A stretch of 64,000 bases of DNA from the IMG/VR virus record IMGVR_UViG_3300032218_002424, positions 45,064 through 109,063 of that record; one strand, 5' to 3'. The notes under the pieces were generated by a model. The model was not told the origin of the DNA. It did not search any database and saw nothing but the letters and a program-made list of their open reading frames with translations. A program made the translations under genes and the position numbers. Shown here in pieces: positions 37,272 to 62,700 of the stretch (its first letter is position 1; every line of letters starts with the position of its first letter). This DNA comes from a virus. Lineage: Duplodnaviria; Caudoviricetes.

Positions 37272-37304
37272 AGGACCTGAGCATGTCCTATCATAAACTG
37301 CTCA
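37272..37304 (+). ncRNA. Repeated H-type pseudoknot, copy 1
   Basis: AGGAC-CTGAGCAT-GTCCT-ATCATAAAC-TGCTCA. Confidence 0.7.
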
Positions 37305-37323
37305 TTTTAACAGAAAGCTTATA

Positions 37324-37506
37324 ATGCCAGTATACGAATATAAGTGCATGAATTGCAACAGCAATGTAGAAGTTACAAGAGGATTTAATGATCCAGATGT
37401 TGCACCAATTTGCACAAATTGTCAAGGAACGATGCAAAGGCATTATGGTTCTGTTGGTGTTCAGTTTAAAGGTTCAGGGTTCTACAAAACAGACAATCCA
37501 AAATAA
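37324..37506 (+). CDS. FmdB-family zinc-ribbon protein
   Basis: MPVYEYKC..C...C..C...FKGSGFYKTD. Confidence 0.88.
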   Translation: MPVYEYKCMNCNSNVEVTRGFNDPDVAPICTNCQGTMQRHYGSVGVQFKGSGFYKTDNPK

Positions 37507-37563
37507 TGTAATGGTATAATTATAATACGAACACAATAACGTGTTTCGTGTAGGAGAGTCTAG

Positions 37564-40419
37564 TTGACCAGAAAGTTAAAACTTTTGCTTGCCAGCCTGT
37601 TTGTTATGGGTTGGCTTTTTCTATTTCAGGTTAAATCTGCTCATGCTGATGAAGTCACAATTCAAGTAACTCCAGCTGATCCAAATATATCAGATACATC
37701 AACAGTAACCTCTCAAATAACAGTTCAGTCTATTGAAACAAAAATAACTGATTCTCAAAATACTTTAAACTCTGCAGCACAGACTCAAAGTACTGCTATC
37801 ATTCAAACAATTCAAGCAAATTTTTCTAATACAGATACATCAACCGCTATATCAATTGCAACTACTCAAGAACCAATTAAAACAGCAGTGGCAGAAGCAT
37901 CGGTAAAAGTTGAAGCTGCAAACAATGCAATTCAAGCAGCACAATCTGCAGTTCAGATTGCAGTATCTGCACAAACAAATGTTGAAACTCAAACTGCAGT
38001 AGTAACGCAAGCCGTTACTAACTTAGAAACAGCAACAGCAACTGTTGTTTCAACTCAAAATACATTAAAAACAACACAGGAAGCACAACCTGCTTTAGAT
38101 GCAACAGCTTCTTGCACACAAGGATCACATTGCGTTGATTTTTATAATAAAAACGCTGAGCTAGGGCCTTTACATGACCAGATTGCTCCTACACAGGCAG
38201 CAGCTGATGCCGCAGTTGCTGCAGTTCCAGTTGCTCAAACAGCTGTAGAAGTTGCTACTACAAATGTTACAAACCAACAAACAGCAGTTGCTGAAGCAAC
38301 AACCGCATCAATCGCAGCAAAAGCAGCAGCAGAGGATTCTGCTGTAACTGTTACAACTAATGGAGTTAAAGCATCTGCCTATACGTATAACGGTGGGGCA
38401 GCCCCCGCAATTCCTACTGCAAATGTAACCCCTGTTTTAACAACAACCGTTCCATACATTTCTGCAAACTGGGGTAGCGGTGTTGTTTTAGGTGTTCGTA
38501 GCGATAGAGTTATAATTAAATACGAAGGTACTATTACTGTTCCAGAAGAAGCAGTTGCAGTTAAGTATGCTGTTTACTCAGATGACGGTTCAAAGCTATA
38601 CATAGATGGTCAACTTGCTATTAATAACTGGAGAGACCAAGGCTCTACATGGAGCCAGTTCTCCCCTATTTATGACACTACTGTAGATAAACAACAAGAC
38701 TTTATTCTTTGGTATTACGAAAATGGTGGTGGGGCTAACGTCACACTTGGTTGGGGTATAACCAGAGCAGACGGAACTGGTTATTGGACTAACCCAATGA
38801 ACACAGCTTTTGCAACCACAGTGGTTACTAAAGACCCTGTATTGGTTGCTGCTGCTAATACCGCATCTGCTACTTTTGTAGCAGCTAACCAACAGTTAAC
38901 AAACGCTCAAACTACTCTTGCTGCAGCTAATCAAACTCTTACATCCGCACAGGCAGCGGTACCAGTAAAAACTCAAGCTGCTGCAGATGCACAAGCTGCA
39001 TATGATACAAAACTTGCTGAAAGAAATGCTGCTTATGAAGCATGGCAAAATGCTATTAATGCTGCAAATTCTGGAGTAGCAGCAATTGCTCAAGCACAAT
39101 CTGCTTATGATCAAGCACAAATAGATTTAATAACTGCTCAGACAAATCTAACAACACAACAACAAAATTTAATAAATGCTCAAACAAATTTAACAGTTGC
39201 AATTCAAACTGCAGATTCTCTTGCAAATACAACAACAACAAAAGTAAATGAAGCAGTAACTGCCATGACAAATGCTGCTCAAGTTACAACAAATTATTAT
39301 GCAGAGCAACAAAGAATTGCTGCAGAAAATGCTCGTATTGCAGCAGAACAAACAGCATTGCAAGCTGCACAAGAAAGAGCTGCTGCAGTAGAACGTGCAA
39401 GAATAGCAGAAGCAATCGCTGCTAAAGCAGAAGCAAACAGAATTGCTGCAGAACAGGCTATAGTAGATGCAAAGGCTGCACAAGAAAAAGCAGCAGCAGA
39501 AGCAAAGGCTGCTGAAGATGCAAGAATTAAAGCAGAACAAGATGCTAAAGAAGCACAAGCAGCAGCAGATAAAGCTAAAGCAGAAGCCGAAATTCAAGCA
39601 GCAAAAGATGCTCAAACAAAAGCAGATGCAGAAAAAGCAGCAGCGGATGCTGCAAAAGCGGAGGCGGATGCAAAAGCAAAAGCAGAACAAGATGCTGCAT
39701 TAGCAGAACAAAAAGCTAAAGACGAAGCTGCAAAGGCTGCACAAGAGGCTGCAAATGCAAAAGCAGAAGCAGATAAACAAAAAGCAGAAGCAGATAAAAT
39801 AGCTGCTGATCAAGCAGCAAAAGAGCAAGCAGCAAAGGATGCAAAAGCACAAGCAGATGCTGTAATTCAAGCACAAAAAGATGCACAAGCAAAAGCTGAT
39901 GCACAAAAAGCAGCGGAAGATAAAGCTAAACAAGATGCTATTGGTGTAAAACCAAATAATCCAAGTCAGCTTTCAGACACAGTTATTAAAGAAGCTCCTA
40001 AAGAAGTTTTAGTTCCGCACATTCAGCAAGATGTTAAGGGTGTAGAAAATGGTGGCATTGAATTTTTTGGAACAAAATCAGCACCTCAAGTAGTTGGAGA
40101 AGATGGAAAATTAACACCACAAGCACCACCACCAGGATCTGGTTTGCCAATTCCACCAGAAGCAATAACAACTCAAGATACATTTATAGGACAACCAGGA
40201 GGAACAACATTTAATGCACCAGATATTGCTGTTCCAGTAATTCTTACACCACTTACTGGTGCCATCGCTTCTGTTCCAGGAGCTGAGGCGGTAAATAAAG
40301 CATTCGTAGCTATGGCTAATATTGGAAATGATATGTCACCAGTTACGAGAAAGAAAGCTAAAAAAATATTGGTACTGACCGTAGCAGTTGCTGCCATAAG
40401 AAGGAGGTTCGGACAATGA
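37564..40419 (+). CDS. Exported coiled-coil protein with PA14 domain, A/K/E-rich stalk and Pro-rich C-terminus
   Basis: Signal peptide; PA14 motifs SDDGSKLYIDG, INNW, WYYENGGGA; hydrophobic plus RRR tail. Confidence 0.75.
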   Translation: MTRKLKLLLASLFVMGWLFLFQVKSAHADEVTIQVTPADPNISDTSTVTSQITVQSIETKITDSQNTLNSAAQTQSTAIIQTIQANFSNTDTSTAISIATTQEPIKTAVAEASVKVEAANNAIQAAQSAVQIAVSAQTNVETQTAVVTQAVTNLETATATVVSTQNTLKTTQEAQPALDATASCTQGSHCVDFYNKNAELGPLHDQIAPTQAAADAAVAAVPVAQTAVEVATTNVTNQQTAVAEATTASIAAKAAAEDSAVTVTTNGVKASAYTYNGGAAPAIPTANVTPVLTTTVPYISANWGSGVVLGVRSDRVIIKYEGTITVPEEAVAVKYAVYSDDGSKLYIDGQLAINNWRDQGSTWSQFSPIYDTTVDKQQDFILWYYENGGGANVTLGWGITRADGTGYWTNPMNTAFATTVVTKDPVLVAAANTASATFVAANQQLTNAQTTLAAANQTLTSAQAAVPVKTQAAADAQAAYDTKLAERNAAYEAWQNAINAANSGVAAIAQAQSAYDQAQIDLITAQTNLTTQQQNLINAQTNLTVAIQTADSLANTTTTKVNEAVTAMTNAAQVTTNYYAEQQRIAAENARIAAEQTALQAAQERAAAVERARIAEAIAAKAEANRIAAEQAIVDAKAAQEKAAAEAKAAEDARIKAEQDAKEAQAAADKAKAEAEIQAAKDAQTKADAEKAAADAAKAEADAKAKAEQDAALAEQKAKDEAAKAAQEAANAKAEADKQKAEADKIAADQAAKEQAAKDAKAQADAVIQAQKDAQAKADAQKAAEDKAKQDAIGVKPNNPSQLSDTVIKEAPKEVLVPHIQQDVKGVENGGIEFFGTKSAPQVVGEDGKLTPQAPPPGSGLPIPPEAITTQDTFIGQPGGTTFNAPDIAVPVILTPLTGAIASVPGAEAVNKAFVAMANIGNDMSPVTRKKAKKILVLTVAVAAIRRRFGQ

Positions 40420-40601
40420 AGCAATTCTTTAAAGATATATCAGCAGATTTCTTTAGCGAAATCTGGACATTTGTTGGATTATTTTCAGCATGGTTGGTTC
40501 TAACTGGATCTGCCAAAACAGTAATCGGACAAGTAACATTAATCTCATTTGTATTATGGATAATCACTTTGAGATTGAGAAACCCAAAAGAAAAGGAATA
40601 G
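40416..40601 (+). CDS. Small 2-TM membrane protein
   Basis: Two hydrophobic segments; GGAGG RBS. Confidence 0.65.
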   Translation: MKQFFKDISADFFSEIWTFVGLFSAWLVLTGSAKTVIGQVTLISFVLWIITLRLRNPKEKE

Positions 40602-40605
40602 TAAA

Positions 40606-40896
40606 ATGGCAAAAAAGACAGTAGAAGACCCAACACAAGTTGGAAGCGGAGCAATTGCAAGCATTAACAATATTCTTGCTAGAATTGTAGCCGTATTTGC
40701 AGCATCAGGACTCTCAGTAATTGGAGCAGGAGCTGTAGTAGGAATTAGCACAATTAAAGCAGTCGTTTTGGCTGGAACTTTAGGAGTAGCAACAGTAGTT
40801 GAGAAGCTTGCTCGTGGTTTCCTAGATGACGGAAAGCTTACAATTGATGAGATTAATTCAGCATTCTCAGCAGTTGATAAGAAAGCAGAAAAGTAG
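40606..40896 (+). CDS. Membrane protein (holin-like candidate)
   Basis: Two TM segments; DDGKLT.DE C-terminus. Confidence 0.55.
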   Translation: MAKKTVEDPTQVGSGAIASINNILARIVAVFAASGLSVIGAGAVVGISTIKAVVLAGTLGVATVVEKLARGFLDDGKLTIDEINSAFSAVDKKAEK

Positions 40897-40928
40897 TATA
40901 ATATATTCATACTCCAAGGGGGTGCTAA

Positions 40929-41183
40929 ATGGATAACATTTGGAAGGGTCAACTAGACCCAAATATGGTCAAAAGAAATTTTGACACGGCACAACGCCGT
41001 CATATGGCCAGTACTGGTGCAGCAATGCCAGATGGCTCTTACCCTATTGCAAATTGCAAAGATGTACAAAATGCAGTAGCATCATGGGGAAGAGGCGGAT
41101 CAGATCCAAAAGTAAAAGAACATATCAAATCTCGTGCCAAAACCCTTGGTTGCGAATCAAACATTCCAGATTCCTGGAAATAA
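40929..41183 (+). CDS. Small conserved phage domain protein (PDGSYPI...RAK.LG)
   Basis: Recognisable motif that recurs in phage proteins; own -10 element upstream. Confidence 0.55.
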   Translation: MDNIWKGQLDPNMVKRNFDTAQRRHMASTGAAMPDGSYPIANCKDVQNAVASWGRGGSDPKVKEHIKSRAKTLGCESNIPDSWK

Positions 41184-41197
41184 TTACCCTACAAGCA

Positions 41198-41241
41198 TTG
41201 ACAGGGCCTTATACTAAACGATATAATTAGTATAGGGCCTT
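41198..41241 (+). promoter_or_regulatory. SigA promoter overlapping a hairpin, upstream of tRNA-Asn/Leu
   Basis: TTGACA-N18-TATAAT inside the inverted repeat AGGGCCTTATACTAA/TTAGTATAGGGCCTT. Confidence 0.75.
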
Positions 41242-41252
41242 GGGTGTTTTAT

Positions 41253-41324
41253 TGATCCATAGCTCAATGGCAGAGCTCTCGACTGTTAATCGAGTGGTTC
41301 CTGGTTCGAGTCCAGGTGGATCAG
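41253..41324 (+). tRNA. tRNA-Asn(GTT)
   Basis: TGATCCA/TGGATCA; CTCGA-CTGTTAA-TCGAG. Confidence 0.93.
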
Positions 41325-41329
41325 CGTAT

Positions 41330-41411
41330 GCCCGAATGGTGGAATCGGTATACACGGCAGACTTAAAATTTGCTGCTTCACAGCTTGTCGGTTCGAGTCC
41401 GACTTCGGGTA
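41330..41411 (+). tRNA. tRNA-Leu(TAA)
   Basis: GCCCGAA/TTCGGGT; GCAGA-CTTAAAA-TTTGC; long variable arm. Confidence 0.93.
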
Positions 41412-41426
41412 CAAAGGAAAACACAA

Positions 41427-41657
41427 ATGAATATAGACGAACAAAAGGTAAACAAGTTTATTAAAAGATTTAAAACGGGAAACCAAGAAGCTTATTGGGA
41501 TAATTACACATTGATTATTTGGCGGCGAGATTCTTCTGGATTCAGTAATGTGCGAGGATTGTATCGCAATAACTGTTGGGGATTATCAGAAAAAATCTCA
41601 ATAGGAGATAACGGAATGTGGGAGCTACCTCACAGATATGTCAAATATATTAAATGA
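41427..41657 (+). CDS. Hypothetical protein
   Basis: AAGGA RBS before the ATG at 41427. Confidence 0.6.
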   Translation: MNIDEQKVNKFIKRFKTGNQEAYWDNYTLIIWRRDSSGFSNVRGLYRNNCWGLSEKISIGDNGMWELPHRYVKYIK

Positions 41658-41949
41658 TCTAGGAATAGACCCAGAAGATTTAGAATGGTGGGACCTTGCA
41701 GCATGCAAGGGTATGGATACAAACTTGTTTTATGACAAGTATGAGTCTGACGTGAACATTGCTAAAAGTATTGATCAGGCATGCTTATCTTGCCCAGTAG
41801 CAAAGAATTGTTTAAAAGCTGGCATTGAAGGAAATGAATATGGAATATGGGGCGGAATATATTTAAACTCTGGTTCAACAGATAAAGCACGGAATATTCA
41901 TAAGACAGAATTAGTATGGAAACAGTTGAAGGTTAAGCATGGACATTAA
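41638..41949 (+). CDS. whiB: WhiB-family Fe-S transcription factor
   Basis: W...AAC...F...C.SCPV...CL...GIWGG. Confidence 0.92.
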   Translation: MSNILNDLGIDPEDLEWWDLAACKGMDTNLFYDKYESDVNIAKSIDQACLSCPVAKNCLKAGIEGNEYGIWGGIYLNSGSTDKARNIHKTELVWKQLKVKHGH

Positions 41950-42933
41950 TCAATGGACGGGCGAAATCAATAAGCCAGTATTTTATACTAAAGAAATGGC
42001 ACAAAAAGTACGGGATATAAAACAACCTGTTCCAGGATTACAAATGGATATAGTTAAATTCCCAGACTTTTTGGCTATTAGGTTATATGAAGGTAACTTT
42101 ATGCAATACAATGATTCTCAACGAATGAGAATTATTGATTATATTGAAATGGTTAAGAAGATCATAGAATCCTATGGTGTTCGTGTTGAACTAGAGGGAG
42201 CAAAAGGTGAAAGAGTATTACGATAAAACTATCATTGTTTTCTTGCATGAGGAAAGAGTGTATGGTCAAATTGAGAACCTTGGACTATATGCATCAATAG
42301 TAAAATTTACTAAAGATGAACACGAATATGAAGAACTAATTGAGAATGAAGAGTTTACCATAATGGATGAAATTCTTATTTCTCATGTAGAGGAAGAATA
42401 ATGGAAAAAATACTTTGCTATAGCTGCAATAAGAGTAAGAATCAATTAAGTGCAAAAAAGTCATCCTTAATTCCAATTAATTTATTAATGTGTGAATCAT
42501 GTATTGCATCTAAATTTGAGCCTAGATGGGTAATTATTTTGGCTGGAAGACAATTTGGATCAGACCATGTAAAAGAATTTGTAATTAAGCGTAAATATAT
42601 TGGCGATTCAATTTTAGCTGATGAGTTATTAGTATAATTAATTTAATATAGATGCCCTAATTGGTAGTGGACATCAAATTTTTAATATTGTAGAATGGTA
42701 TCATGTCAGAAAAAAGAATTAGAATCATAGCCTCATGGCTTGCAGTCGCATTGAATTTATTTGTTGTATGGTTTATGTATCAAAGATGGAAGAACCATCA
42801 AGATCTTTTAGTTCCGCTCACACTTTTGATTGTAACTAAAATTTGGATTAACCAATATCTTACAGAAGGAAAACTTAAGCATCTAATAGATATAGTTGAA
42901 AAAGCTAAAATTACTAGATCAAGGAATCAATAA
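41939..42933 (+). CDS. Four hypothetical ORFs (41939-42226, 42207-42401, 42401-42637 zinc finger, 42703-42933 membrane)
   Basis: Tightly packed or overlapping ORFs on the coding strand. Confidence 0.55.
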
Positions 42934-42936
42934 TAA

Positions 42937-43494
42937 ATGACATGTGTTGTCGGGCTTGTTAAGGGTGGAAAGGTCTACATGGGTGCTGATGCATCTGCTG
43001 TAGACGAAAAAGGCGGACACATTTTTGCACAAAAAGATGCAAAGGTATTTAGAGTTGGTCAATTTGGTATTGCTTACACAGATTCATTTAGAATGGGTCA
43101 AATTTTGCAATATGATTGGATTCCGCCTAAGTTTACTGGAAATTCAAAAAGTCTAGACAAATTTATGAGAACCAAGTTTGTGGAATCTGTTAAAGAAGCT
43201 TTTAAGTCTGGCGGATTTGGATCAATTGGAAATAACACTGAAGAAGATGATGGTGGAGTTTTTTTAATTGCAGTGGCAGGCACAGGAAGACTTTTTTATA
43301 TGGACTCTGACTATCATGTTGGAGAAAATATTATTCCGTATTATGCTGAAGGCATAGGAATGGATTTTGCACTGGGATCATTATTTTCAACTCAAACAAT
43401 GAGAGATCCTTATAAAAGACTTGAGATATCTTTATCAGCAGCATCACAATTTTCTATCGGAGTATGTCCACCATATAGTTATATTGAACTGTAG
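42937..43494 (+). CDS. Ntn-hydrolase, HslV/proteasome-beta-like protein
   Basis: N-terminal M-T-C; GAD, K-VF, G.G..FALG pattern. Confidence 0.7.
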   Translation: MTCVVGLVKGGKVYMGADASAVDEKGGHIFAQKDAKVFRVGQFGIAYTDSFRMGQILQYDWIPPKFTGNSKSLDKFMRTKFVESVKEAFKSGGFGSIGNNTEEDDGGVFLIAVAGTGRLFYMDSDYHVGENIIPYYAEGIGMDFALGSLFSTQTMRDPYKRLEISLSAASQFSIGVCPPYSYIEL

Positions 43495-43533
43495 GTCTTG
43501 ACAATCTTGCCTACATTTACTATTATAAGGTCT

Positions 43534-44448
43534 ATGAATAAAAAACTAATCGTAGTAGCAACAAGCATCGCATTAATTTTTGCTGGTACTGTAGGTTCAT
43601 CTGCAGATACAGTAAAGCCATCAGTTGTAGTAATTGATACGGCACTAGATACATCATTACCTATTTTTAAAGGACGAATTGCACAGGAAGTTTGTGCAAT
43701 GGAATGGAACCTTTGCCCAAATGGAACGGGGTTTCAAGAAGGTCCAGGATCAGCATATATTCCTATGGCATACATGCAAACAGATGCATTTAATCATGGA
43801 ACTCAAATGGCATCAATCGTTGCATCAGCAAATCCAAATGTAAATATTATTTTTATTAGAATTGTTGGATTAACTAGAGATGGATATCGTGCATCAACCA
43901 CAGAAGCTTCAGTTGTTAAGGCATTAGATTGGGTTGTTGCAAATAAATCAAAGTATAATATTGCATCGGTTGCCATGAGTCAGGGAACCCACGACCTTGC
44001 GACATTTAACAGTCTTTGTAAAACAAGTGTGCTCATTTCAGATATTGATAAATTAAAATTAGTTAATGTCCCAGTAATGTTTCCAGCAGGAAATGATTAT
44101 GATACAACTCGTGTAGACTATCCTTCATGCATTCCGCAGACAATCGCAGTAGGAGCAACAGATAAATTTGGTTCAATTGCACTTTACAGCAACGGAACAC
44201 CTCCAGCAGTTGATTTCTATTCATTAGGAGTAATGAATGTAACTAATCCAGGAGGAAAAATTTCTGCAGTAGCAGGAACATCTGCTTCAGTTCAAATTGC
44301 TGCAGCACAGTGGGCAGCGGTTGAAACAGCAAAACCAAATTTGAACTATGATCAAATTTATAGTTTATTGCAACAAACAGCAACAACCACAACTAACTCT
44401 AAGGTTAAGGGTGGTTATTTAATTAACCTAGAAAAGGCAATCAAATAA
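43534..44448 (+). CDS. Secreted subtilisin-like (S8) serine protease
   Basis: Signal peptide from ATG 43534; VVIDT, HGTQM, AGN, GTSAS. TTGACA-N17-TATTAT promoter at 43498-43526. Confidence 0.85.
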   Translation: MNKKLIVVATSIALIFAGTVGSSADTVKPSVVVIDTALDTSLPIFKGRIAQEVCAMEWNLCPNGTGFQEGPGSAYIPMAYMQTDAFNHGTQMASIVASANPNVNIIFIRIVGLTRDGYRASTTEASVVKALDWVVANKSKYNIASVAMSQGTHDLATFNSLCKTSVLISDIDKLKLVNVPVMFPAGNDYDTTRVDYPSCIPQTIAVGATDKFGSIALYSNGTPPAVDFYSLGVMNVTNPGGKISAVAGTSASVQIAAAQWAAVETAKPNLNYDQIYSLLQQTATTTTNSKVKGGYLINLEKAIK

Positions 44449-44853
44449 TGGAAAAAGATCCAATGATCGAAAAGCAACAGAGCATGTTAGAGGGAATTGT
44501 TGCTGATATTGTAGTAGAAGTTTACCAAAAATGGTTAAACCAAATGCCAGAAGAACAGCGAAAAGATGAACAGGCCACTCAGACATTAGGAGCTAATGCT
44601 TCTGAAGTTGTTTATTTTGTTGTACAGCGTTTTATGGATAAATTTAATGAGGCAGCTGAGCAAGTAAAAAATGCCTAAGATCGCCTTGATATCTTCAGCT
44701 ATATATGATATTATAGAGCCTGACAGCTCGTTTGAAACAGAACTTGTTGACATCCCTCAAGTCATACTTGATAGATATGATAGGGTTATGAAAGAATTTT
44801 GGGATCTCCAAAATGAATTTGAACAGTACCAGAGAGCACAGGAAACAGATTAA
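44448..44853 (+). CDS. Two hypothetical ORFs (44448-44678, 44671-44853)
   Basis: Coupled ORFs. Confidence 0.55.
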
Positions 44854-46297: not shown

Positions 46298-47866
46298 ATG
46301 AAAAAAGTAGATAAAATTGTTATTGTGGGTGGAGGCTCTGCAGGTTGGATGACCGCAGCTACACTTATTAATGCATTTCCAAATAAAGATATAACCTTGG
46401 TAGAAAGTCCCTATGTACCAACACTTGGAGTAGGAGAAAGCACACTTAATGCAATGCCAGCATGGTTGTATTCGCTTGGAGTAAAACTTGAAGATTTTAT
46501 GGAATATACTGATGCAAGTTACAAACTAAGCATTAAGTTTAATGATTTTTATGAAATTGGCGATGGTGGATATCATTACCCATTTAGTGAACCATTTTTA
46601 GATAACTGCGTAATGCCTGGAGCAAATGACTGGCATGTATTGAAGCATATGGTTCCAGAAACACCTAAGCAAGATTATGTAAATTCTGTATGGCCAAATT
46701 CAGTTCTTTTGGATAGTGGAAAAATTTATACTGGAACAGAACTAGAAAATTTTAGATTTGAAAAAGATAACGCATTGCACTTTGATGCAATTAAGTTTGC
46801 AGAATGGTTAGCTGAAAAATATGCTAAGCCTCGTGGAATTAAACATATTGAAGCAAATGTAAATGATGTTGTGGCTGATTCAGAAGGTGTCAAAAAGTTA
46901 ATTTTAGAAGGCGGAGAAGAATTAACGGCAGATCTATTTTTTGACTGTACTGGATTTAAGAGCATGTTGCTTGGCAAAGCAATGAATGAACCTTTTGTGT
47001 CATATGCAGATAAACTTCCAGTTAATAGCACTTGGGCAGTTCAACTTCAATATGAAGATGCAGAAAAAGAAATTAAGAACTATACAGATTGTACAGCATT
47101 AGGCAATGGTTGGGTCTGGATGGCTCCTCTATGGTCTAGAATTGGAACTGGATACGTTTATAGTGATAGATTTACTACTAAAGAAGCTGCATTAGAAGAA
47201 TTTAAAGAGCACTTAAGGTCATATCATGGAGCACATAGAATTACCGATGATCTAAAGTTTAGAGAAGTTCCATTTAGAGCTGGTCACTATGAACGTACTT
47301 GGGTTAAGAATGTGATCGGTATTGGAATGTCAGCAGCATTCCTAGAGCCACTTGAAAGTAATGGAATTTACTTTATTCATGAACATTTACGTGAAGTTGT
47401 AAGAGGAATTAATAAAGGCTTTTATAATGGTATAAATAGAGATCTTTATAATGCTTATGTTCAAAAGCGTTTTGACCTTTTTGCAATATTTATTCAATAT
47501 CACTATTCTTTGAGTAAACGTAATGATACTGAATTTTGGAATTATATGACAAACAATGATGTAACTGGAGACATTTGGGGCGGTTACAATAACCATATAA
47601 CATTATTTGGAGACAAGATTGAAGGTCAATCATATCGTGCAGCAAAAGATTCTGGATTCCATGCTATTGCTGTTGGAATGGAATACTATACTGTTGACAT
47701 GTTGACAACCAAATATTGGAACTGGCACTTTGATACAGACTATAAGAAAGTAGCTGGAGAATTTTATTTGAGAACACAAGAATCTCGTAAAAAGTGGTTA
47801 AAAGCAATTGAAAATGCACCATCGCATTATCAATACCTAAAAGACAATTTTCATTCAGGAGAATAA
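46298..47866 (+). CDS. Flavin-dependent tryptophan-halogenase-family protein (PrnA/RebH-like)
   Basis: VIVGGGSAGW, GVGES, catalytic K (SYKLSIKF), F.DCTGF, GWVWMAP, FLEPLES. Confidence 0.9.
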   Translation: MKKVDKIVIVGGGSAGWMTAATLINAFPNKDITLVESPYVPTLGVGESTLNAMPAWLYSLGVKLEDFMEYTDASYKLSIKFNDFYEIGDGGYHYPFSEPFLDNCVMPGANDWHVLKHMVPETPKQDYVNSVWPNSVLLDSGKIYTGTELENFRFEKDNALHFDAIKFAEWLAEKYAKPRGIKHIEANVNDVVADSEGVKKLILEGGEELTADLFFDCTGFKSMLLGKAMNEPFVSYADKLPVNSTWAVQLQYEDAEKEIKNYTDCTALGNGWVWMAPLWSRIGTGYVYSDRFTTKEAALEEFKEHLRSYHGAHRITDDLKFREVPFRAGHYERTWVKNVIGIGMSAAFLEPLESNGIYFIHEHLREVVRGINKGFYNGINRDLYNAYVQKRFDLFAIFIQYHYSLSKRNDTEFWNYMTNNDVTGDIWGGYNNHITLFGDKIEGQSYRAAKDSGFHAIAVGMEYYTVDMLTTKYWNWHFDTDYKKVAGEFYLRTQESRKKWLKAIENAPSHYQYLKDNFHSGE

Positions 47867-49865: not shown

Positions 49866-49893
49866 AGCCCCAGATTTTTCTGGGGCTTTTCTA
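49866..49893 (+). terminator. Intrinsic terminator
   Basis: AGCCCCAGA-TTTT-TCTGGGGCT-TTTCT. Confidence 0.8.
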
Positions 49894-49923
49894 TTGACAA
49901 GTATCGTTTATAAATTGTATAAT
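49894..49923 (+). promoter_or_regulatory. SigA promoter for tRNA-Gly/Gln
   Basis: TTGACA-N18-TATAAT. Confidence 0.8.
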
Positions 49924-49961
49924 AATATTATCGAAATCACCTACGGGTTGAACGATAAAAT

Positions 49962-49989
49962 GACCTGAGTACGTCTATGTAAACTGCTC
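49962..49989 (+). ncRNA. Repeated H-type pseudoknot, copy 2
   Basis: GAC-CTGAGTAC-GTC-TATGTAAAC-TGCTC. Confidence 0.65.
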
Positions 49990-49999
49990 CATTTTTATT

Positions 50000-50070
50000 G
50001 CGAGTGTTACATAATGGTAGTGTCTCTGCCTTCCAAGCAGATAGTGCCAGTTCGATTCTGGTCACTCGCT
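50000..50070 (+). tRNA. tRNA-Gly(TCC)
   Basis: GCGAGTG/CACTCGC; TCTGC-CTTCCAA-GCAGA. Confidence 0.93.
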
Positions 50071-50076
50071 CTGTAT

Positions 50077-50147
50077 TCCCAGGTCGTCTAACGGTAGGAC
50101 ATCGCCCTTTGGAGGCGAGTATCTTGGTTCGAATCCAGGCCAGGGAG
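50077..50147 (+). tRNA. tRNA-Gln(TTG)
   Basis: TCGCC-CTTTGGA-GGCGA; one A.A mismatch in the acceptor stem. Confidence 0.88.
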
Positions 50148-50151
50148 CTAA

Positions 50152-53766: not shown

Positions 53767-53783
53767 CCTTTATATATCTATAT

Positions 53784-54374: not shown

Positions 54375-55453
54375 TTAGTTATCTTCAATTAAAGACATTC
54401 TATCTTTAATTAGTTTTGCTATGAGGTTGTGTGCCTCAATATTTTCGGTTTCGCTGCCACCCCATAAAAGCTTTTGGGCCTGGGCCAGGACTGAGTCTAC
54501 ATATTCATCACTCATCTTCATCTTCTTCCTCCTCATTATATTCAATGGCATCAATATCCATTAGCCAATCGCTAATGTGATCGTCAAGTGTTTCTGTGCC
54601 ATATTCTAATGTAAATCCATTTGAATCTGCTTGCTCCCAAAATAGTTTCCAGACTTCTTCGTCAGTCATGTTAACCTTGTACTCTTCATCATCTCTGAAG
54701 TTGTTTAACATGCTCTTGGTAACATCCCAGGTCCATACCCAAACCAGGGACGGGAACACAGGAAGTTTACCAATCTTATCAATAATTACATTAATGTCTT
54801 TGTATACATCTTGCATACGTGTTTGTTCTTGTAGGTCCATTAGTTGTCTTTCTCCAATTCTGCTTTAGCAAATGCGATTGCATATGTTAGTTGGTATAGT
54901 TCTCCATATGTCTCAAGGACACCTTCCCAGTACTTCCGCTCCATTGAATCCATTGCTTCGCCTGAATCTTCTTCTGCTTCTTGTGCCATTTCTAGTTGTG
55001 CCTCTGCCTCAACCATAAGCGTCTTCAGGTGCCCGTGCATGATGTCCGCCCCGTCCATGCCCAAGATAACTTGGCGGGACAGATATGGGTCTAGTGTGAT
55101 ATCCATATTATTCCTTTCCATTTAGCAGTAGTATACCATTGGCCACTGACATTAAATGCCTGGTATTTAAAATCTCTGCTTCCTTACATCTATAAAAATG
55201 ATGTTCATTTACATAATCAATCTCTTCTAGGTCTTGCATTAAACTAATCTCATGTAGTTTCATATACTCTAATAATGAATCTATTTTAACCTTCATATCC
55301 ATCAAAGTATCCCTCCGCCCAAAGTCCTTGTAAAAATTCTGATGCTTTATTTAATCCTTCTGCCAGTTCTGTTTGGGCAGGTGGGATATAAATAGAAGAA
55401 TCTCCTACTGATTTAATCATATGGTTTAAATCTTGCAAATCATAGCCTAACAT
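54375..55453 (-). CDS. Five small early-type ORFs (54375-54515, 54508-54840, 54840-55121, 55108-55305, 55286-55453)
   Basis: Coupled acidic ORFs; the first and last were read manually. Confidence 0.6.
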
Positions 55454-55579
55454 TATTCCGCCTTTCGTATATGAGTATTATATATCAGATGACTGACATT
55501 TGTCTACGTAAATTCCTGTGATTTACACCACATCCCCGTAAGAGAGAAGATCCGTCCCCAGCCCTTAGCAGAGCTGAGA

Positions 55580-55700
55580 AAGGGAAGAACCCTGGCGGTC
55601 TCTCCAACACCAGGGTTCTTCAGGGAACGTTAGGCTGCATCCACACTATGCATATTTAAAGACTTGGTCTGACGGGACCTGAAAGCCTCACCTAACTTCA
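55580..55700 (-). ncRNA. Candidate small RNA
   Basis: TGGTATAAT at 55706-55714; closing stem GTTAGG/CCTAAC; terminal hairpin AAGAACCCTGG/CCAGGGTTCTT; no convincing ORF. Confidence 0.4.
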
Positions 55701-55718
55701 AATTAATTATACCATATT

Positions 55719-57291
55719 TCAGTTGACTGTAAAGTCATGGTATTCTTGAACCTCTTCCTGATAGTTACAGAATGATTCAAATGAATGCCAATTGCCTTCA
55801 TCACAAACCATTTGTGTAGTCATATCAATTTCTACTGTTGTGTCCCAGTATTCTTGATTAGCATTTGCAAGATAGATTCCGAAACCAGTTTCCTCGTCCC
55901 GTCCTTCTTTAGTTAATTGGTCCATGATAATACGTGTTGAATATGGAATGTCACCCATATCAATACGACGCTTTGCAGCCCGCAGTGCTGCAGATAAATC
56001 CTCACGCCAGGATGTTTCACCCCAGTGTGAATATAAAACTAAGTTTGGCATATCCAAATCAGTTTTAAATACAAAGTTAATCCGTGCTCCCATTTGAAAC
56101 CTCCGCCATTTCTTTTTCTTGTTGGGCCGCTAATTCTACTATCTCATAAGACCATTTGTCAAGGGCCTCTTTAAATTCATCTAAATGATGTCCACAAAAG
56201 AACAGGCTGCCAGCCATACCTTTTGCTTCATAGAGTGCCTGAGCAACTCTACATTTGTCGCATCCAGTCCATGTCAAATTATCCCCGATTCAATTAAATC
56301 TGCGATATCTTGGTAAGTGTGTACAGGTTCGTCATTACGATCCATAAGCTCAGACAATGTTTCGACAAGCAATTCTCGTGCATGTCTCACACCATCATCA
56401 AAGCCTTCTCTATAGTCTGACATATTTATTCTCCATATGGGTGATACGGCTCAAACTCTGAAACATAAACTTCTGTTAGATTATACTTCTCACGTAAGTT
56501 TGATACTTTCTCAATGCTACCAGTTCCGATGTTGAATGTCAACGGTTCTGTAGATGCTTCTGGGTCCAGACCCATGATGTTGGCATCCCACACCGCCCTT
56601 TGAAAGGCGATGCGGGACGGAGCGGAAAGTTCAAAGTACATTAGTAAGCACCTTCCTCAACACGTTCAACATCATGGTTGGTAACCTGAATCAATGCATC
56701 ATATGAATCAACGGTTAGATTAGTTGCAATAAAATCTTCAATTGCATCCATGTCTCCACCAAGTTCAACTTCAACAGTTAAATCAACACGTACCCATGCA
56801 GTGTATTCAACTTCCTTGGTTAGAGGAATATCAAAGATTTCTGCAATTGCAGTCAATGTCTCTTGGTCTTCTGAATCAGCAAATGTCTCTTCAAGCAATG
56901 TACGCAACTGGCTTTCCTTACGGTACCACTCGTTTTGCTTTTCAGTTAGACTCTTGTACCAGCGACGGCCTTGGTCAAGGGAATATTCAATCTCTGTAAC
57001 CTTTTGAACGGGATAAGATACTTCATCCCCGTCAATCTTCTTATATGTTACAAGTAGATTAGGATTATATGTCTCGTTAATTGTTATTGTTGTTTCCATG
57101 GTTTCCTCTTTCTGTGTGGGTATAACGGGTATTGTAGCATCTTCCACTGACAATAAGGTAGTATTTGAACCACATAAACATGTGATATCTGTCACATTTG
57201 GGGTATATCCTGATTTAAGTATATATTCAATTAAAGCATTGCATTCTCCATTACAGACCCAAGTATATTTAAACCATTTTAGATCCATCAT
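55719..57291 (-). CDS. Early-type ORFs (55719-56093, 56077-56277, 56274-56423, 56426-56641, 56641-57291)
   Basis: Coupled ORFs with RBSs; 55719-56093 has the common phage 'YSHW' motif. Confidence 0.6.
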
Positions 57292-57397
57292 TGCTCCTCT
57301 ATTTGTTCTGTTTTAGGATTCCAATATCCAAATCCACAATTAAATGTACAAGTATAAACCCCTGGAACATCTGAACATAACCAATTATGTTTATGCA

Positions 57398-58150
57398 TTA
57401 TGCACCTGCTTTCCTATATTCAGGCACCTTTGTATCAAGGTACTGCTTATGGTCTTCACATTGTTCAACTGCTTCTAGGTCAGCCTCGCCAAGCCAATGG
57501 CATGCGGAGCAAATCTCACCGCAGTCATTTTCGCAATACTCCATGCAATCATGTTCATCACAATCACGGCATCTAGATTCATACTCACCATGGCTAATTA
57601 CTACACCACGAAGAATCTCTAGTTCACCACCCCAACCAGTCTCTTCCTCATATGATAAAGTAAAAAGTAGATTAGGATATTGAGCAGACAACTTTTCAAG
57701 GGCGGGAAGTGGAATACCCCATGCTGTATTAAAGTTATAATATACAACTAAGTTATCACCATTTTCAGTAGGACCTTCCATATATGTCTCTGGATATTCA
57801 TTATCCTCAGATACAGCAACATCCCATTTTGTTCCCCATTCACGATTATTCCATGAATACCAAGAATTATCTACAGATGCTACCTTCATTGTATCTGCCC
57901 ACCAATTTGGGTCATTTACATCTAATTCAGAACGCTTAGGCTGTGCCTTATATGCTTCCAAATCTGTTGGAGCAATGATATTGCGAAATGAAAATATAGG
58001 ATTAATATACTTAGTTTGTTTTACACCAAATGCCAAATCACCTGTTGCTTCAATATAATCCACAAATGGTGTGTTCATTTGTTCTACTAGTTTTGTTACT
58101 TGTTCTGGCTTACCTTCAATTGTTAAACCATTATATACCCAGTTTGGCAT
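57398..58150 (-). CDS. DUF1281/YubB ferredoxin-like family protein
   Basis: MPNW start (ATG 58150, AAAGGA RBS); WY.WN...WGTKW, FNTAW..P, YEEE; Cys-rich tail. Confidence 0.75.
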   Translation of the reverse strand: MPNWVYNGLTIEGKPEQVTKLVEQMNTPFVDYIEATGDLAFGVKQTKYINPIFSFRNIIAPTDLEAYKAQPKRSELDVNDPNWWADTMKVASVDNSWYSWNNREWGTKWDVAVSEDNEYPETYMEGPTENGDNLVVYYNFNTAWGIPLPALEKLSAQYPNLLFTLSYEEETGWGGELEILRGVVISHGEYESRCRDCDEHDCMEYCENDCGEICSACHWLGEADLEAVEQCEDHKQYLDTKVPEYRKAGA

Positions 58151-58291
58151 AATCTTCCTTTCTTGAGAGATGATGGAATTATACACCACCCCACTGACAT
58201 TCACAAGCATTTCCAGTGGTTTTTTTCAGGTTCCCGTATGATAAAGATCACACCCGTAAGAGAGGGCATCAGCTCGTATCTTTTGCGGGCA

Positions 58292-58325
58292 TGCATATTT
58301 ATGCAGCTTTATGCATATTTATACT
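58292..58325. promoter_or_regulatory. Tandem ARG-box-like operator (second pair at 61520-61553)
   Basis: TGCATATTTATGCA-N6-TGCATATTTATACT; 20-bp period at both loci. Confidence 0.6.
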
Positions 58326-58328
58326 TTG

Positions 58329-58402
58329 CGATTCCGACGGGACTTGAACCCGCAACCTCTACCGTGACAGGGTAGCGATCTAACCAATTGATCTACGGAA
58401 TC
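58329..58402 (-). tRNA. tRNA-Asp(GTC)
   Basis: GATTCCG/CGGAATC; CTACC-CTGTCAC-GGTAG. Confidence 0.93.
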
Positions 58403-58405
58403 AGA

Positions 58406-58434
58406 TGAGCAGTTTTAATTCGTGCTCAGGAATT
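58406..58434 (-). ncRNA. Repeated H-type pseudoknot, copy 3
   Basis: AATTC-CTGAGCAC-GAATT-AAAAC-TGCTCA. Confidence 0.7.
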
Positions 58435-58439
58435 TATTT

Positions 58440-59489
58440 TTATTTCGTTAGAGCAAGAACTTGCTTAACGATTTTATTTTTTTCTGCGGTAACAACTGGG
58501 TCGAATCCAGATGCACCTGCCATTAGCGAATCGCCTGCTTTACGAGCAGTGCGGAAATAATCCAAACGCTCAGTTAGAGCATTTACAACGCCCCAAGCAG
58601 TGCCCTTGATATTAGCATTGGTTGGCGAATTGTGATACAACTCATCAAGCAATACAACTTTATTTTCCCATTTAGTAAGAGCAACCTTAGCCGCATCTTT
58701 TTCAGGCTTTGGATAAAGTGCTTTCACAATTTGTGAGAACTTTGCATCGGTTACGGAAATCTCATAGAGTTCCTTAGCCTGCTTTTCGAATTCGTCCATA
58801 TAACCAAGAGTTAAGCCAAGAGCCTCACGAGCAGCGAGAATCTTACCATCAACAGTTTGGGTGTGGCGAATCTTGAAAGACTGCTTAGCCTTCTTCATTG
58901 CAAGGTTAAGAGTATTTTGGCACATTACACGAACAGGAGTAATTGCAGACTGAACTGCAACTGAACCATCGTGAGATGTCCAGACGATTAGATACAACTT
59001 AGTTTCATCTGCTGCACCATTAGGGTCAAGCACCATTGTGCGGGGAATTGAAAGAGAGCCATAGACTACACGACCATTCTTTAGAGAACCCGCAGACTCC
59101 CAATAAACATCTGGGTTGCCATCGTGAAGGTTATCCGCAAACGAAAATAAATCCTCATTTTGGACAGTCTTATAACGAGAGCCAACAGTTGCAAGGACAT
59201 TCTTTGTACCTGCATTGTAAGGGTCATCACGAACAACAAGAAAATTCTCGCTGACTGAATTGTAATTTGCAGGTAGCAAATCTGCAACAGGCTCTAACTG
59301 AACATTCCAATTAGAGAGTTTAGCACCATCAAGCATTTGTGCAGTTGTAACTGCCTCATCTTGATTGAACACCTTATTGGCAAAAGAGTGCCAAGCAGGA
59401 TTGGTACGAAGATTTACAGCAAGAGATGCTGAGCCATCTTCGATTTCTGACTTGTGAGCAGTATTGCCCACTGGAGATTGAACTGACAT
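58440..59489 (-). CDS. DUF932 / TIGR03299-family phage-plasmid protein
   Basis: PAWH, Y..VQN, ESAGSL..G, SHDGS, TPVRVMCQNTL, IRHT, GTAWG..NA.TE. Confidence 0.9.
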   Translation of the reverse strand: MSVQSPVGNTAHKSEIEDGSASLAVNLRTNPAWHSFANKVFNQDEAVTTAQMLDGAKLSNWNVQLEPVADLLPANYNSVSENFLVVRDDPYNAGTKNVLATVGSRYKTVQNEDLFSFADNLHDGNPDVYWESAGSLKNGRVVYGSLSIPRTMVLDPNGAADETKLYLIVWTSHDGSVAVQSAITPVRVMCQNTLNLAMKKAKQSFKIRHTQTVDGKILAAREALGLTLGYMDEFEKQAKELYEISVTDAKFSQIVKALYPKPEKDAAKVALTKWENKVVLLDELYHNSPTNANIKGTAWGVVNALTERLDYFRTARKAGDSLMAGASGFDPVVTAEKNKIVKQVLALTK

Positions 59490-59766
59490 ATGAGTTATCC
59501 TTTCGATTAGATTGGCTTAATTATAACAGGTGCCACTGACATTGTATAGTTAATTTAGGGAATGTCTCAAGCTTTGAGATGTGATCAATCTCACAGATCT
59601 GGGGGTTGTGGACGACACGCCGTAAGCCTGTGGATAACCCCGCAGATATACGGGCGGCTAACCGATTTGTCAAATCTATTTTGAATTTCTAAACAAATAA
59701 ATAATTAATGCAAGGGGGCTAATCAAAAATCCAATTAGCACCCAAGCAATTAATTCACCGATAACG

Positions 59767-62700
59767 TTATACATTCACCTTGCGGTTTCTATGATTAGCA
59801 AGAACATCCATTGGATAATAAACAGCCATTGTCTTCTTCTTCTTTAAACTATCATATACATATGCTTTTACATTACCTTGAAACTTATCAACATTAGACC
59901 AAACTAATTGTGATAGTCCTTCTTTATCAAGACCTTCATCAGAAAAAATTCTGATGTCATTTGCCTTGACTTCATCATAGATGTCAATACGAAAACGCAT
60001 TTTGATCCATTTCGCTAGTAGGGATAGAAAGAGCAGTTTTAACTCATGCTCAGGAGTATTGTAACATTACTTACCGATTTTGACCATTGCCCAACGAAGC
60101 CCGCCCTCAGTCATTAGACCGAGCTTTGTTAGATTAGGACGAACAGCAATAATTTCTGTAATTGTTCCTGTTACGCCTGACTTGCCAGTTGTGAAGATGT
60201 CGCCCTTTGAGTAGAAACGACCTTTTGTTACATCTAGGATTGGAGACATTTTATTTTCTTTCTGTTAGAAGTTGGTTGAGGGTTCTTACTTACGACATTG
60301 GGCGAGGACTCCCTCTAAACTGCCCCTGTTTCGATTATTTAGTTAGAGATACTTAGCGATTGACTTCATAGTAGAAGCATTAACTGTTTCCTCATCTGTC
60401 ATCTTTAAGATGTTGAGGGCGTTGTTAATTTCCTCCACGATTTCACGATAAGTGTGGTCGTGCATAGTTGTGAAATCACGCTGTGGTTCAGCAGGGAAAT
60501 CGCCTTCTGCTACTGTTAGGTCAAAATCTACATTGAGAGTTTTGTTCCAAGAACGATAGTTTGTGCGAAGGTTCTCAGCCTTAGCAAAATTAGCAATAGC
60601 ATACTTACCAATTTCCTTACGCCATTTTTCCATAGCCTTTTGGAACTTTGCTTCGTTGCTTGCTTCATTTTCTTTATCAGACTTGAGAGTTGCCAACTTT
60701 GTTTCCAAAGCCTTGATTACCTTTGGTGTTGCCACCTTTACTGTGATTGCTCTTGTCATTTTATTTCCTATTCTTTGTGTGGGTTGTTGTTGAGAGTATT
60801 ATAGCAGAGGCTACTGACATAGCCCCTGCTATTATTATTTACTTAGAACTTTACTGTTGTAAAGCGTTCCTGTCCATTTACATCAAGCAAAACACGAGTT
60901 GTGTTTGCGTTGATTGGTTCGATAGCAACGATTGTCCCTGTTACATTTGACTTCTGTGTTGTAAAGAGGTCGCCTACCTGATAGGTTTGTGTTCCGATTG
61001 TCATTTGTTTCCTGCTTTCTGTTTGTTGTTGATAGAGAGTATTATAGCGGATAGGGCTGACATTTATCAAGCCCTATCCCACTATTTGAGATAGATTTGG
61101 TGTGATAAAAATCACGCCAATTCTAGAAACATTTCTGTTCCGCCTGCGTTAATAAATGCTACCATTGAAACTAATTCATCATGAGTTGTTGTTTCGGTAA
61201 TTGACAAGCATTCATCTACTGCCTGCTTATTCATTTCAATAAACGCCTCGCCCATCTTTGCAATTTGTGGAGCATAACGGGAGGAATTAGAAATACGAGA
61301 TACGAACTTAATGTCCTTATGTGTAAATGGATAAAGAGTAAAGCCTGTTGTTGTCATTTATTGTCCTTTGTTTGTGTGAATAAGAGTATTGTACCGTAAC
61401 CCACTGACATTTTCTAATCCATTTACGGCGTGTCGCAAGATTTGTGAGATTTCTCACAGGATCCAGGGTTTTCCACAACTCCACTTAAACCTGTGGATAA
61501 GTCCTCAAAAGAGCGGGCCTGCATATTTATGCATTACTCTGCATAATTATTTTTATATTTATTTTTGCGAGTATATTTTTTCTTATTGCGAACAGGAGTT
61601 GCGGCGTTACTACGCCGCAGCTCTTGTACACGTTTTACTTTTTCCATAATTTTATTCCTCATAGTATTCGTCATCTTGACACCATGCTTCCAAGTGGTGG
61701 CTTTCAATAATTGCCCATGCAGGTGCATAAGTTTCACCACGCCAAGTTATACCTTCAGGCAAATCAATTTTGCGTTCGGTGCTATCTTCCCAGTATGCAT
61801 CAATAGCATCAATACATGGTTGCACCATTGAAAGTGGAACGGGTGGATAGTGATTAGAACGCAATTGTATTGCAATTGAACTTTCTAAATCTAAATTCAT
61901 TGTAGCAAGATCAGAGGAGAGATTATTACCCATTATTATTTACCTACCTTTGTGTTGTAATTAATTGCGTCATAGAATCGGGTGACATCGAAATTAGAAT
62001 TATCTTTGCCAAACATTACTGCAAACTCTCTCGCTAAGTATCCATATACTGCGGGGTGAGTTTTATCCTGCACACTAGCAAGAATTTCAGCGGTTGAAAT
62101 ATAGTCTTTACGGCTCATCATTATTTTTCTACCACCCTTCTACCTTCACGATAGAATATTTTAGTGTAACACTTGCCTGAAGGCGTGTAGAGATTAACAG
62201 TAGAATATTTATCTGCGAATCCCCAGTCAATAAACTTTGCAAACTCTTTATGAGCCTGCAATTCATCTGAGTATTGGAATACACCGAACGGCGTTGTATT
62301 CTCATCATAGGTTACAGTAATTTTATACATTATTATTCACCGACCTTTACTGCAACAGTTGCATAGAAATCATTACGGAAGATACCCTTGCCGTCATAGG
62401 TAGGGCGGACTTTAACGAGATAGGCTTCGGTATTTTCTCCATACCAAACACCATCACGCTTTTCAGCATATTGGATAATTCCGTCTAATCCTTTGCGGGA
62501 ATTAGAGCGATAGTATTTACCTTCTAAGAGGCTTTCGATATTGTAACAGTTAGCCATTGTGACTACCTTCTTTCTTTTGATTGTTAGAGGACATTGTAGC
62601 AGATAGCACTGACATCGCTTCTGCCTTTGAGTTTTGGCGTGTCGCTAGGACATACGCCTTATATTCATCTAGGTTCATTTCTGACCTTCTTTCTACTAGA

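Follow-up and report, generated by a model that had tools for sequence, protein, structure and literature searches.

An uncatalogued RNA pseudoknot of phages and bacteria that may cap the 3' end of the upstream transcript

Why does one viral genome carry the same short motif at four separate places, and what does this motif do? The question is raised by IMGVR_UViG_3300032218_002424, a virus record of ~109 kb in IMG/VR, of which we analysed the right-hand 64 kb (64,000 nucleotides; hereafter the window). A reading made from the sequence alone had described four copies of a compact RNA pseudoknot, each on the transcribed strand. A pattern search with CTGAGYAY-N(3-18)-AAACTGCTC found exactly four matches in the window (37277-37303 and 49965-49989 on the plus strand, 58407-58429 and 60031-60053 on the minus strand), where they had been described, and 100 dinucleotide shuffles of the window gave a mean of 0.00 matches. 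All four copies share their strand with the flanking genes or tRNAs. With a covariance model made from homologues, the same four copies, and no fifth, were recovered in the whole 109-kb genome.

The arms of the first stem (P1) differ between the copies yet are complementary in each: AGGAC/GUCCU, GAC/GUC, AAUUC/GAAUU and ACUC/GAGU in copies 1 to 4. The second stem (P2), which pairs the hairpin loop with the tail, is GAGCA/UGCUC in copies 1, 3 and 4; copy 2 has GAGUA/UGCUC, in which one pair is U.G. P1 begins 5 nucleotides (nt) after the stop codon of hsp20 in copy 1, 5 nt after that of an open reading frame (ORF) of the phrog_1221 family in copy 3, and 9 nt after that of a 60-aa ORF in copy 4, in agreement with the 5-10 nt claimed for three copies. 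As a general rule, placement after stop codons applies to these three and not to copy 2, which is located in the leader of a tRNA transcript without an upstream ORF. The two copies that had been said to end within about 10 nt of a tRNA do so, at 10 nt from tRNA-Gly (copy 2) and 4 nt from tRNA-Asp (copy 3).

An exact-pattern scan of IMG/VR yielded at least 120 loci. Among the 145 matches listed, 96 had one spacing, with the consensus NNWC-CU-GAGYA-H-GWNN-NN-AAAC-UGCUC. Because P2 was fixed in this pattern, we rescanned ~1.1 Mb of viral DNA with a descriptor that was blind to P2 and contained only P1, the first loop (L1) and AAAC. P2 was paired at all five positions in 132 of 142 matches, compared with 0 of 20 in a reversed-sequence control. 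Eight fully compensated forms of P2 were found in this rescan: AAGCA/UGCUU, GAACA/UGUUC, GAGUA/UACUC, AAAUA/UAUUU, GGACA/UGUCC, AGACA/UGUCU, AGGCA/UGCCU and GGGCA/UGCCU. The consensus of the family is NNWC-CU-RRRYA-H-GWNN-NNAAAC-URYYY, with RRRYA as the 5' strand of P2.

In an alignment of 95 sequences, whose selection criteria included P1 pairing and at least 4 of 5 P2 pairs, 99.9% of cells were paired and double changes were present at 7 of 9 pairs. The covariation score was 0.544; shuffles scored 0.150, and sliding the partners gave no more than 0.118. P1 was checked independently in a bacterial scan in which three P1 pairs were left free; 77 of 121 matches formed all of the free pairs, compared with ~5% expected. 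U.G wobbles occurred on the sense strand only (22 of the 95 sequences at one P2 pair), there was one non-pair in the whole helix, and the mismatches expected from folding of the opposite strand were absent. Because both helices covary, U.G pairs are restricted to the gene-sense strand and the orientation follows the genes, we conclude that the element is an RNA H-type pseudoknot. Thus, the covarying P1, the loop-tail P2 with its U.G variant and the A-rich third loop (L3), proposed from four copies, hold in hundreds of homologues. About 17 of 27 nucleotides are near-invariant, and the C-G pair that closes P1, the CU of L1, the A-U pair at the helical junction and the AAAC of L3 are invariant or nearly so.

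At least 120 viral contigs carry members of the family, as do at least 120 bacterial contigs of many phyla. The bacterial carriers include Saccharibacteria, Aminicenantes, Clostridia, Anaerolineae, Thermodesulfobacteriota, Actinomycetes, Lactiplantibacillus, Paenibacillus and Segatella. Among cultured phages, many S. aureus siphoviruses (80, phiETA and phiNM4 included) carry the variant CUUAGCA/UGCUU between the minor-head and scaffold genes, roseophage SIO1 carries the pseudoknot after its ribonucleotide reductase gene, and Vibrio phage D456 has a copy in which L1 is CC. Further carriers are mycobacteriophage Labelle, Arthrobacter phage Molivia, Nostoc phage NMeng1 and the cyanophages S-RIM4, S-H35 and S-EIVl. 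The crAss-like phage cr7_1 (L257, record positions ~36880-36945) has a tandem pair before its primase gene, and P2 of the first copy there is the variant UAGCA/UGCUA; two or three pseudoknots within 50-150 nt of each other are also present at L093:7403-7580 and L195. One large phage tRNA array with the pseudoknot also contains a manA RNA motif (RF01745, 57.1 bits; L090:301-464). A match in gp34 of Escherichia phage ST32 (L255) was rejected: it forms only 2 P1 pairs and is inside a coding sequence that reads P-E-H-G-N-K-L-L, so that the likeness is probably due to chance or to coding; pattern matches therefore need a check of P1.

The earlier reading could not assign the motif to a family, and indeed no family in Rfam 15 fits. 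A search at the gathering score gave tRNAs only and no match to the pseudoknot, while copies 1, 3 and 4 searched at E up to 10 gave nothing relevant, including no weak match to preQ1-I. Eighteen bacterial loci also gave no Rfam match to the pseudoknot. No Rfam ribozyme model matched over the pseudoknot itself; Hammerhead_3 matches adjoin it, and these, tRNAs and one manA RNA make up the Rfam matches overall. No account of the element turned up in full-text literature searches on the motif string, on phage RNAs that resist exonucleases or on pseudoknots that stabilise 3' ends. It is a real, widespread and uncatalogued RNA family.

The genes upstream of the pseudoknot are unrelated; they encode phrog_1221 proteins, ribonucleotide reductase, single-stranded DNA-binding protein, terminase, hsp20 and minor head protein. 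At viral loci both flanking genes had the orientation of the pseudoknot in 91 cases, and both had the opposite orientation in 0. Convergent arrangements (gene, pseudoknot, opposing gene) outnumbered divergent ones by 11 to 3 in viruses and by 23 to 9 in bacteria, and in convergent contexts the gap between stop codon and pseudoknot was often 5-9 nt. Spacers of 3 to 9 nt between stop codon and P1 were found 1, 2, 15, 8, 6, 6 and 10 times at viral loci, and spacers of 4 to 9 nt were found 3, 6, 5, 8, 1 and 4 times at bacterial loci. The lower edge is sharp, at ~5 nt, and the mode of 5-9 nt is common to bacterial chromosomes and compact phages. The pseudoknot is tied to the upstream gene, and we assign it to the upstream unit because of the shared orientation, the excess of convergent over divergent contexts and the sharp start of the spacer. 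The ribosome holds 5 nt of mRNA in its entry channel beyond the A-site codon, and this is also the spacing of frameshift stimulators. The pseudoknot would therefore be placed as near to the stop codon as its folding allows while a ribosome terminates. On its other side, the next start codon is 20-39 nt past the pseudoknot in 45 of 132 cases.

The downstream flank also carries sites at which RNA is cut. A tRNA on the same strand starts 4-14 nt after the pseudoknot in 13 cases (tRNA-Asp in 8 of these), and no tRNA ends within 90 nt before it. On a Saccharimonadales contig (L199) a type III hammerhead ribozyme directly follows the pseudoknot (44.3 bits, E 4e-9), with its scissile bond 6 nt past P2. 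A scan for the combined pattern of pseudoknot and hammerhead found 18 viral loci. One of these hammerheads (L266) was above the Rfam gathering score, our own strict descriptor accepted seven (six of the 18 viral loci and the Saccharimonadales contig), and those of ~12 of the 18 loci were canonical by eye; the scissile bonds are 5-21 nt after P2. For the reverse order, 0 of 22 matches had a hammerhead before the pseudoknot; these matches were acidic C-terminal codons before a stop and a pseudoknot. A cut by RNase P or by the hammerhead leaves the pseudoknot at the extreme 3' end, with a tail of 4-8 nt in most cases. A test for intrinsic terminators found a terminator-like site after 0 of 132 viral pseudoknots and after 12 of 115 bacterial ones, and the pseudoknot itself has no U-tract. 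Directly after P2, 71% of viral copies have an A, followed by pyrimidines (C or U), and G is depleted (2-12%) at +1 to +9. Candidate reasons for this depletion are a landing or cut site, or the avoidance of mispairing.

A bacterial sub-family is arranged differently. At ~25 chromosomal loci (L135, L138, L170 at 2742-2804 on the minus strand, L184, L212, L243 and about 20 others) a conserved ORF of ~20 codons ends at the UGA in the CCUGAG of the pseudoknot. The carriers are Aminicenantes, Thermodesulfobacteriota, Clostridia, Anaerolineae, Actinomycetes and Spirochaetota. The small ORF has a good ribosome-binding site and the consensus M-K-R-F-x-V-P-R-V-[SA]-H-C-x-x-G-C-x4, and its synonymous serine codons AGC and UCG argue that it is translated. 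Neither Pfam nor NCBIfam has a model that matches it. An intrinsic terminator usually comes next, and the small ORF is often convergent to a cytidylyltransferase-like gene (PF01467). At these loci, translation of the small ORF must be incompatible with folding of the pseudoknot.

Based on the cuts that leave the pseudoknot at a 3' end and on its tie to the upstream stop codon, we favour a model in which the pseudoknot is a 3'-end cap or boundary element of the upstream RNA, halting 3'-to-5' exonucleases and preserving both stop codon and ORF. We hold this model tentatively, at a little less than even confidence. In the model, each copy would be transcribed within a longer RNA and fold into a compact H-type pseudoknot of ~27-32 nt. 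P1 would have 4-5 bp and P2 5 bp, the 2-nt L1 (CU) would cross the groove of P2, and, after a single base at the junction, the A-rich L3 (NNAAAC) would run along P1. The pseudoknot would belong to the upstream RNA, at the nearest distance (at least 5 nt) that a terminating ribosome permits. Cleavage a few bases past the pseudoknot would then turn it into the 3'-terminal structure of the upstream product. The cutter would be RNase P where a tRNA follows, or a hammerhead ribozyme; elsewhere, we suppose, host endonucleases would cut in the G-poor spacer. From the observed fold, conservation, strand and placement, we infer that this structure would stop 3'-to-5' exonucleases and stabilise the mRNA; the stop codon and ORF would stay intact and neighbouring cistrons would be separated. 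On this view, the sequence would be so well conserved because the fold is a special one, as it is in the viral RNAs that resist exonucleases.

Several observations weigh against this model. Copy 2 has no upstream ORF, and only a leader of ~70 nt would be there to protect. The ~25 bacterial loci at which the UGA of the small ORF is inside the pseudoknot break the 5-nt rule and are at odds with a simple cap, and most copies have no known cut site downstream. Nine base pairs give a modest thermodynamic stability, and RNase R is able to unwind structured RNA. Finally, as plain GC hairpins are normally enough to stabilise 3' ends, so extreme a conservation of sequence may instead reflect a specific partner.

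One of the closest known likenesses is to coremin (xrRNA-C) and its Watson-Crick variant (xrRNA-WCC), found in beny-, cucumo- and other RNA viruses, at which Xrn1 and scanning ribosomes stall and which stimulate frameshifting (PMC6546385, PMC10520033, PMC10321173). Both elements are ~20-30 nt long and have a short hairpin closed by C-G, with loop-tail pairing in the Watson-Crick variant, and both are located at gene ends or between genes; coremin is a protein-free mechanical block. The conserved A-rich linker is (G)UUAAAC-U in coremin and NNAAAC-U in the phage pseudoknot. Compared with the coremin spacer GUUAAACUAC, the pseudoknot shares (U)UAAAC-U, while the rest of its tail is the P2 strand. 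However, the coremin loop has 4 or 6 nt (YGAD or YGNNAD, PMC10520033), whereas that of the pseudoknot has 8 nt (CUGAGCAY), of which only the inner UG...AU resembles the coremin consensus. The second stem of coremin has at most 3 bp, compared with 5 bp in P2. Coremin also needs a second hairpin (hp2) directly downstream; such a hairpin follows the pseudoknot at 10 of 132 viral loci (19 and 18 in controls) and at 9 of 115 bacterial loci, no more often than at control positions. Last, coremin blocks a 5'-to-3' eukaryotic enzyme, whereas the context of the pseudoknot points to protection of upstream RNA in bacteria. The likeness raises the question of whether these RNAs converged or share an ancient solution.

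Two further resemblances had been noticed from the sequence, to luteoviral and to preQ1-I pseudoknots, and each is one of topology and not of family membership. Like the -1 frameshifting pseudoknots of luteoviruses and enamoviruses (of the beet western yellows virus type), ours is a compact H-type fold in which L1 has 2 nt and starts with C, a single base forms the junction and stem 1 is lined by an A-rich L3, and it is located 5-9 nt after the ribosomal A-site codon; CU and AAAC are invariant. The luteoviral stems have 5 and 3 bp, whereas ours have 4 and 5 bp, and the luteoviral elements follow slippery heptamers in overlapping ORFs, whereas ours follows stop codons, sits in tRNA leaders and before ribozyme sites, and occurs in DNA phages and bacteria. 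We rejected membership of the luteoviral -1 frameshifting family, as slippery heptamers were present at 9 of 132 loci, compared with 4 of 132 in a control window, and the pseudoknot comes after stop codons. The preQ1-I riboswitch (RF00522) is of similar size and has the same order of P1, loop, P1 3' arm, A-rich tail and P2. It differs from the pseudoknot, which has an L2 of 1 nt, occurs in several copies and comes after genes. Membership of preQ1-I was also rejected; there was no covariance-model match at E up to 10, the upstream genes are diverse and there were no queuosine genes nearby. Because each fails at least one defining feature that we tested, the pseudoknot is a member of none of the coremin, luteoviral and preQ1-I families.

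In its proposed job, the pseudoknot resembles the bacterial 3' stabilisers (REP/BIME, terminator hairpins and the intercistronic hairpins of puf and mal), which are post-cistron structures that halt 3' exonucleases and give segments of an mRNA their own stability. These are plain, species-specific hairpins, whereas the pseudoknot is a single fold conserved across phyla and has no U-tract. The pseudoknot may work like a viral roadblock RNA or like a bacterial 3' stabiliser hairpin.

The main rival to a 3' cap is a coremin-like roadblock that works in the 5'-to-3' direction, or both ways, against RNase J and sliding or scanning ribosomes, and so shields the downstream cistron or tRNA or uncouples its translation. 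The topology and the (U)UAAAC-U linker common to coremin and its Watson-Crick variant agree with this, as do the nearby downstream start codons and the position of copy 2 in a tRNA leader. However, RNase P and hammerhead cuts sever the pseudoknot from the downstream RNA, and because they separate the two it cannot protect downstream products. In addition, the tie to the upstream stop codon is tighter than that to the downstream start codon, convergent contexts exceed divergent ones, the second hairpin is not enriched, and the hosts include Vibrio, which to our knowledge has no RNase J. A roadblock of this kind is unlikely. We also doubt, somewhat more strongly, that the pseudoknot is itself a processing signal, whether as a mimic of the tRNA acceptor for RNase P, as a guide for another endonuclease or as a tiny self-cleaving ribozyme. 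The stacked helix has 9-10 bp, compared with 12 bp in tRNA; a cut within L1 would destroy the pseudoknot; and the A after P2 is followed by CC in no more than half of the copies. This must be set against a U at -1, a G-C first pair and an A with pyrimidines after the 3' strand, which agree with RNase P mimicry, the near-invariance of U7 before G8-C28, and the base preferences and G depletion downstream of P2. The sporadic spread over many phyla and the tandem copies are reminiscent of small ribozymes, but we know of no natural self-cleaving ribozyme so small, and the presence of a separate ribozyme or tRNA right after the pseudoknot suggests that the pseudoknot itself does not cut.

Alternatively, with a stop codon in the A site, the pseudoknot could act at the mRNA entry channel as an element of translation termination or recycling, and tune termination, block sliding after termination or determine re-initiation at the following gene. 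Such an element would show the lower limit of 5 nt and the mode of 5-9 nt that are found in bacterial chromosomes and phages, the geometry is that of -1 frameshift stimulators, and the bacterial small ORFs end at the pseudoknot's own UGA. Nevertheless, we judge this improbable, given that copy 2 and other copies have no upstream ORF, that slippery heptamers are not enriched, that no read-through extension is conserved and that placement before tRNAs and hammerheads has nothing to do with translation. It is very improbable that the pseudoknot binds a small ligand or a conserved protein as a riboswitch-like or operator-like regulator. The number of near-invariant nucleotides and a size and topology like those of the preQ1-I aptamer would suit such a role, but there is no Rfam match at E up to 10, the upstream genes are unrelated, several copies occur per genome, and the copies come after genes and not in 5' untranslated regions. 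Least credible of all is a site that acts as DNA (a promoter, a nick site or a recombination site). Such a site could well be intergenic, present in several copies and a short distance from the next gene or tRNA; yet two interleaved helices covary, G.T is tolerated on the sense strand only and the orientation always follows the genes. A promoter for a phage-type RNA polymerase was rejected mainly for the RNA-type covariation; a search of the genome with PF00940 gave no match, although this is weak, as control genomes also gave no signal. The interpretation in the sequence-only reading holds in part. Of the functions that it listed, an exonuclease block and a processing signal agree with the tie to the stop codon and with downstream cut sites at 4-21 nt, while antitermination and ligand binding are unsupported because the neighbouring genes are diverse and have no link to queuosine or S-adenosylmethionine genes.

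A broader proposal builds on the 3' cap, and we consider it possible but more speculative. A ~27-nt pseudoknot that blocks bacterial 3'-to-5' exonucleases independently of protein would be the first prokaryotic counterpart of the viral exonuclease-resistant RNAs, and phages across phyla would pair it with RNase P sites or hammerheads to obtain defined, stabilised 3' ends in polycistronic transcripts. If so, a cis-acting RNA fold that ranks among the most widespread in phages has so far escaped notice. Individual genes within long phage transcripts would get lifetimes of their own, and scattered phage tRNA genes and hammerheads would be the cutters that create capped ends. It would also provide synthetic biology with a tiny, portable and host-independent stabiliser of mRNA. 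As cultured phages such as the S. aureus phages and SIO1 carry the pseudoknot, the hypothesis is directly testable.

The surroundings of the four copies in the window (Table 1) show how the pseudoknot is used within one genome. From its sequence, hsp20 appears to be a self-contained unit: the TGCTATAAT box and a UUCG-capped hairpin are followed by a ribosome-binding site and the ORF, and the 5-nt spacer and the pseudoknot complete it. The transcript likely starts in the UUCG hairpin, ahead of the ribosome-binding site, and the modelled hairpin looks like a classic 5'-terminal stabiliser of mRNA. The copy 2 cassette (49866-50148) has no ORF and consists, in order, of a terminator-like hairpin, a promoter, a 5' hairpin, the pseudoknot, 10 nt, tRNA-Gly and tRNA-Gln. 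From this order, RNase P would free an ORF-less leader of ~70 nt bounded by the 5' hairpin and the 3' pseudoknot. One possibility is that it is a stable small RNA; another is an expression cassette emptied of its gene. Both the tRNA-leader unit and that of hsp20 start with a strong 5' hairpin and finish with the pseudoknot.

Table 1. Features around the four pseudoknot copies (positions in the window).
Feature	Position	Strand	Remarks
TGCTATAAT extended -10-like box	36767-36775	+	promoter read from sequence, without scan score
Hairpin with UUCG loop	36776-36808	+	fold -25.8 kcal/mol, z -4.5
hsp20 ORF	36838-37266	+	phrog_432, E 6e-41; stop 5 nt before copy 1
Pseudoknot copy 1	37272-37303	+	covariance model R1, 28.5 bits
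Copy 1, P1	37272-37276/37285-37289	+	
Copy 1, L1	37277-37278	+	CU
Copy 1, P2	37279-37283/37299-37303	+	
Copy 1, L2	37284	+	U
Copy 1, L3	37290-37298	+	9 nt, 3' end AAAC
60-aa Cys-rich ORF	37324-37506	+	start 20 nt after copy 1
Terminator-like hairpin	49866-49887	+	ahead of tRNA-cassette promoter
Promoter TTGACA-18-TATAAT	49894-49923	+	of copy 2/tRNA cassette; 12/12 consensus matches
Hairpin	49929-49957	+	predicted 5' end of tRNA-cassette leader
Pseudoknot copy 2	49962-49989	+	P1 only 3 bp, L3 9 nt; covariance model, 18.9 bits
tRNA-Gly	50000-50071	+	RNase P site 10 nt after copy 2
tRNA-Gln	50077-50148	+	
tRNA-Asp	58328-58402	-	RNase P site 4 nt after copy 3
Pseudoknot copy 3	58407-58434	-	canonical; L3 6 nt; covariance model, 45.7 bits
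phrog_1221 (DUF932-like) ORF	58440-59489	-	349 aa, upstream of copy 3
77-aa ORF	59767-60000	-	start 30 nt after copy 4
Pseudoknot copy 4	60031-60057	-	canonical; covariance model, 46.3 bits
60-aa ORF	60067-60249	-	upstream of copy 4

An ORF of the phrog_1221 family, found upstream of copy 3, precedes the pseudoknot at 14 of 60 related viral loci. A conserved module, made of the phrog_1221 gene, the pseudoknot and often a tRNA next, can be recognised at 58328-59489 and at these 14 loci. A megablast comparison of the region with cultured phages gave no match. The sequencing runs listed as containing the window are DNA metagenomes, with no RNA run among them. The same phage carries a Cas4/RecB-type exonuclease gene (29381-30169, phrog_1706) and a tryptophan halogenase-like gene (46298-47866, phrog_2928, E 4e-136).

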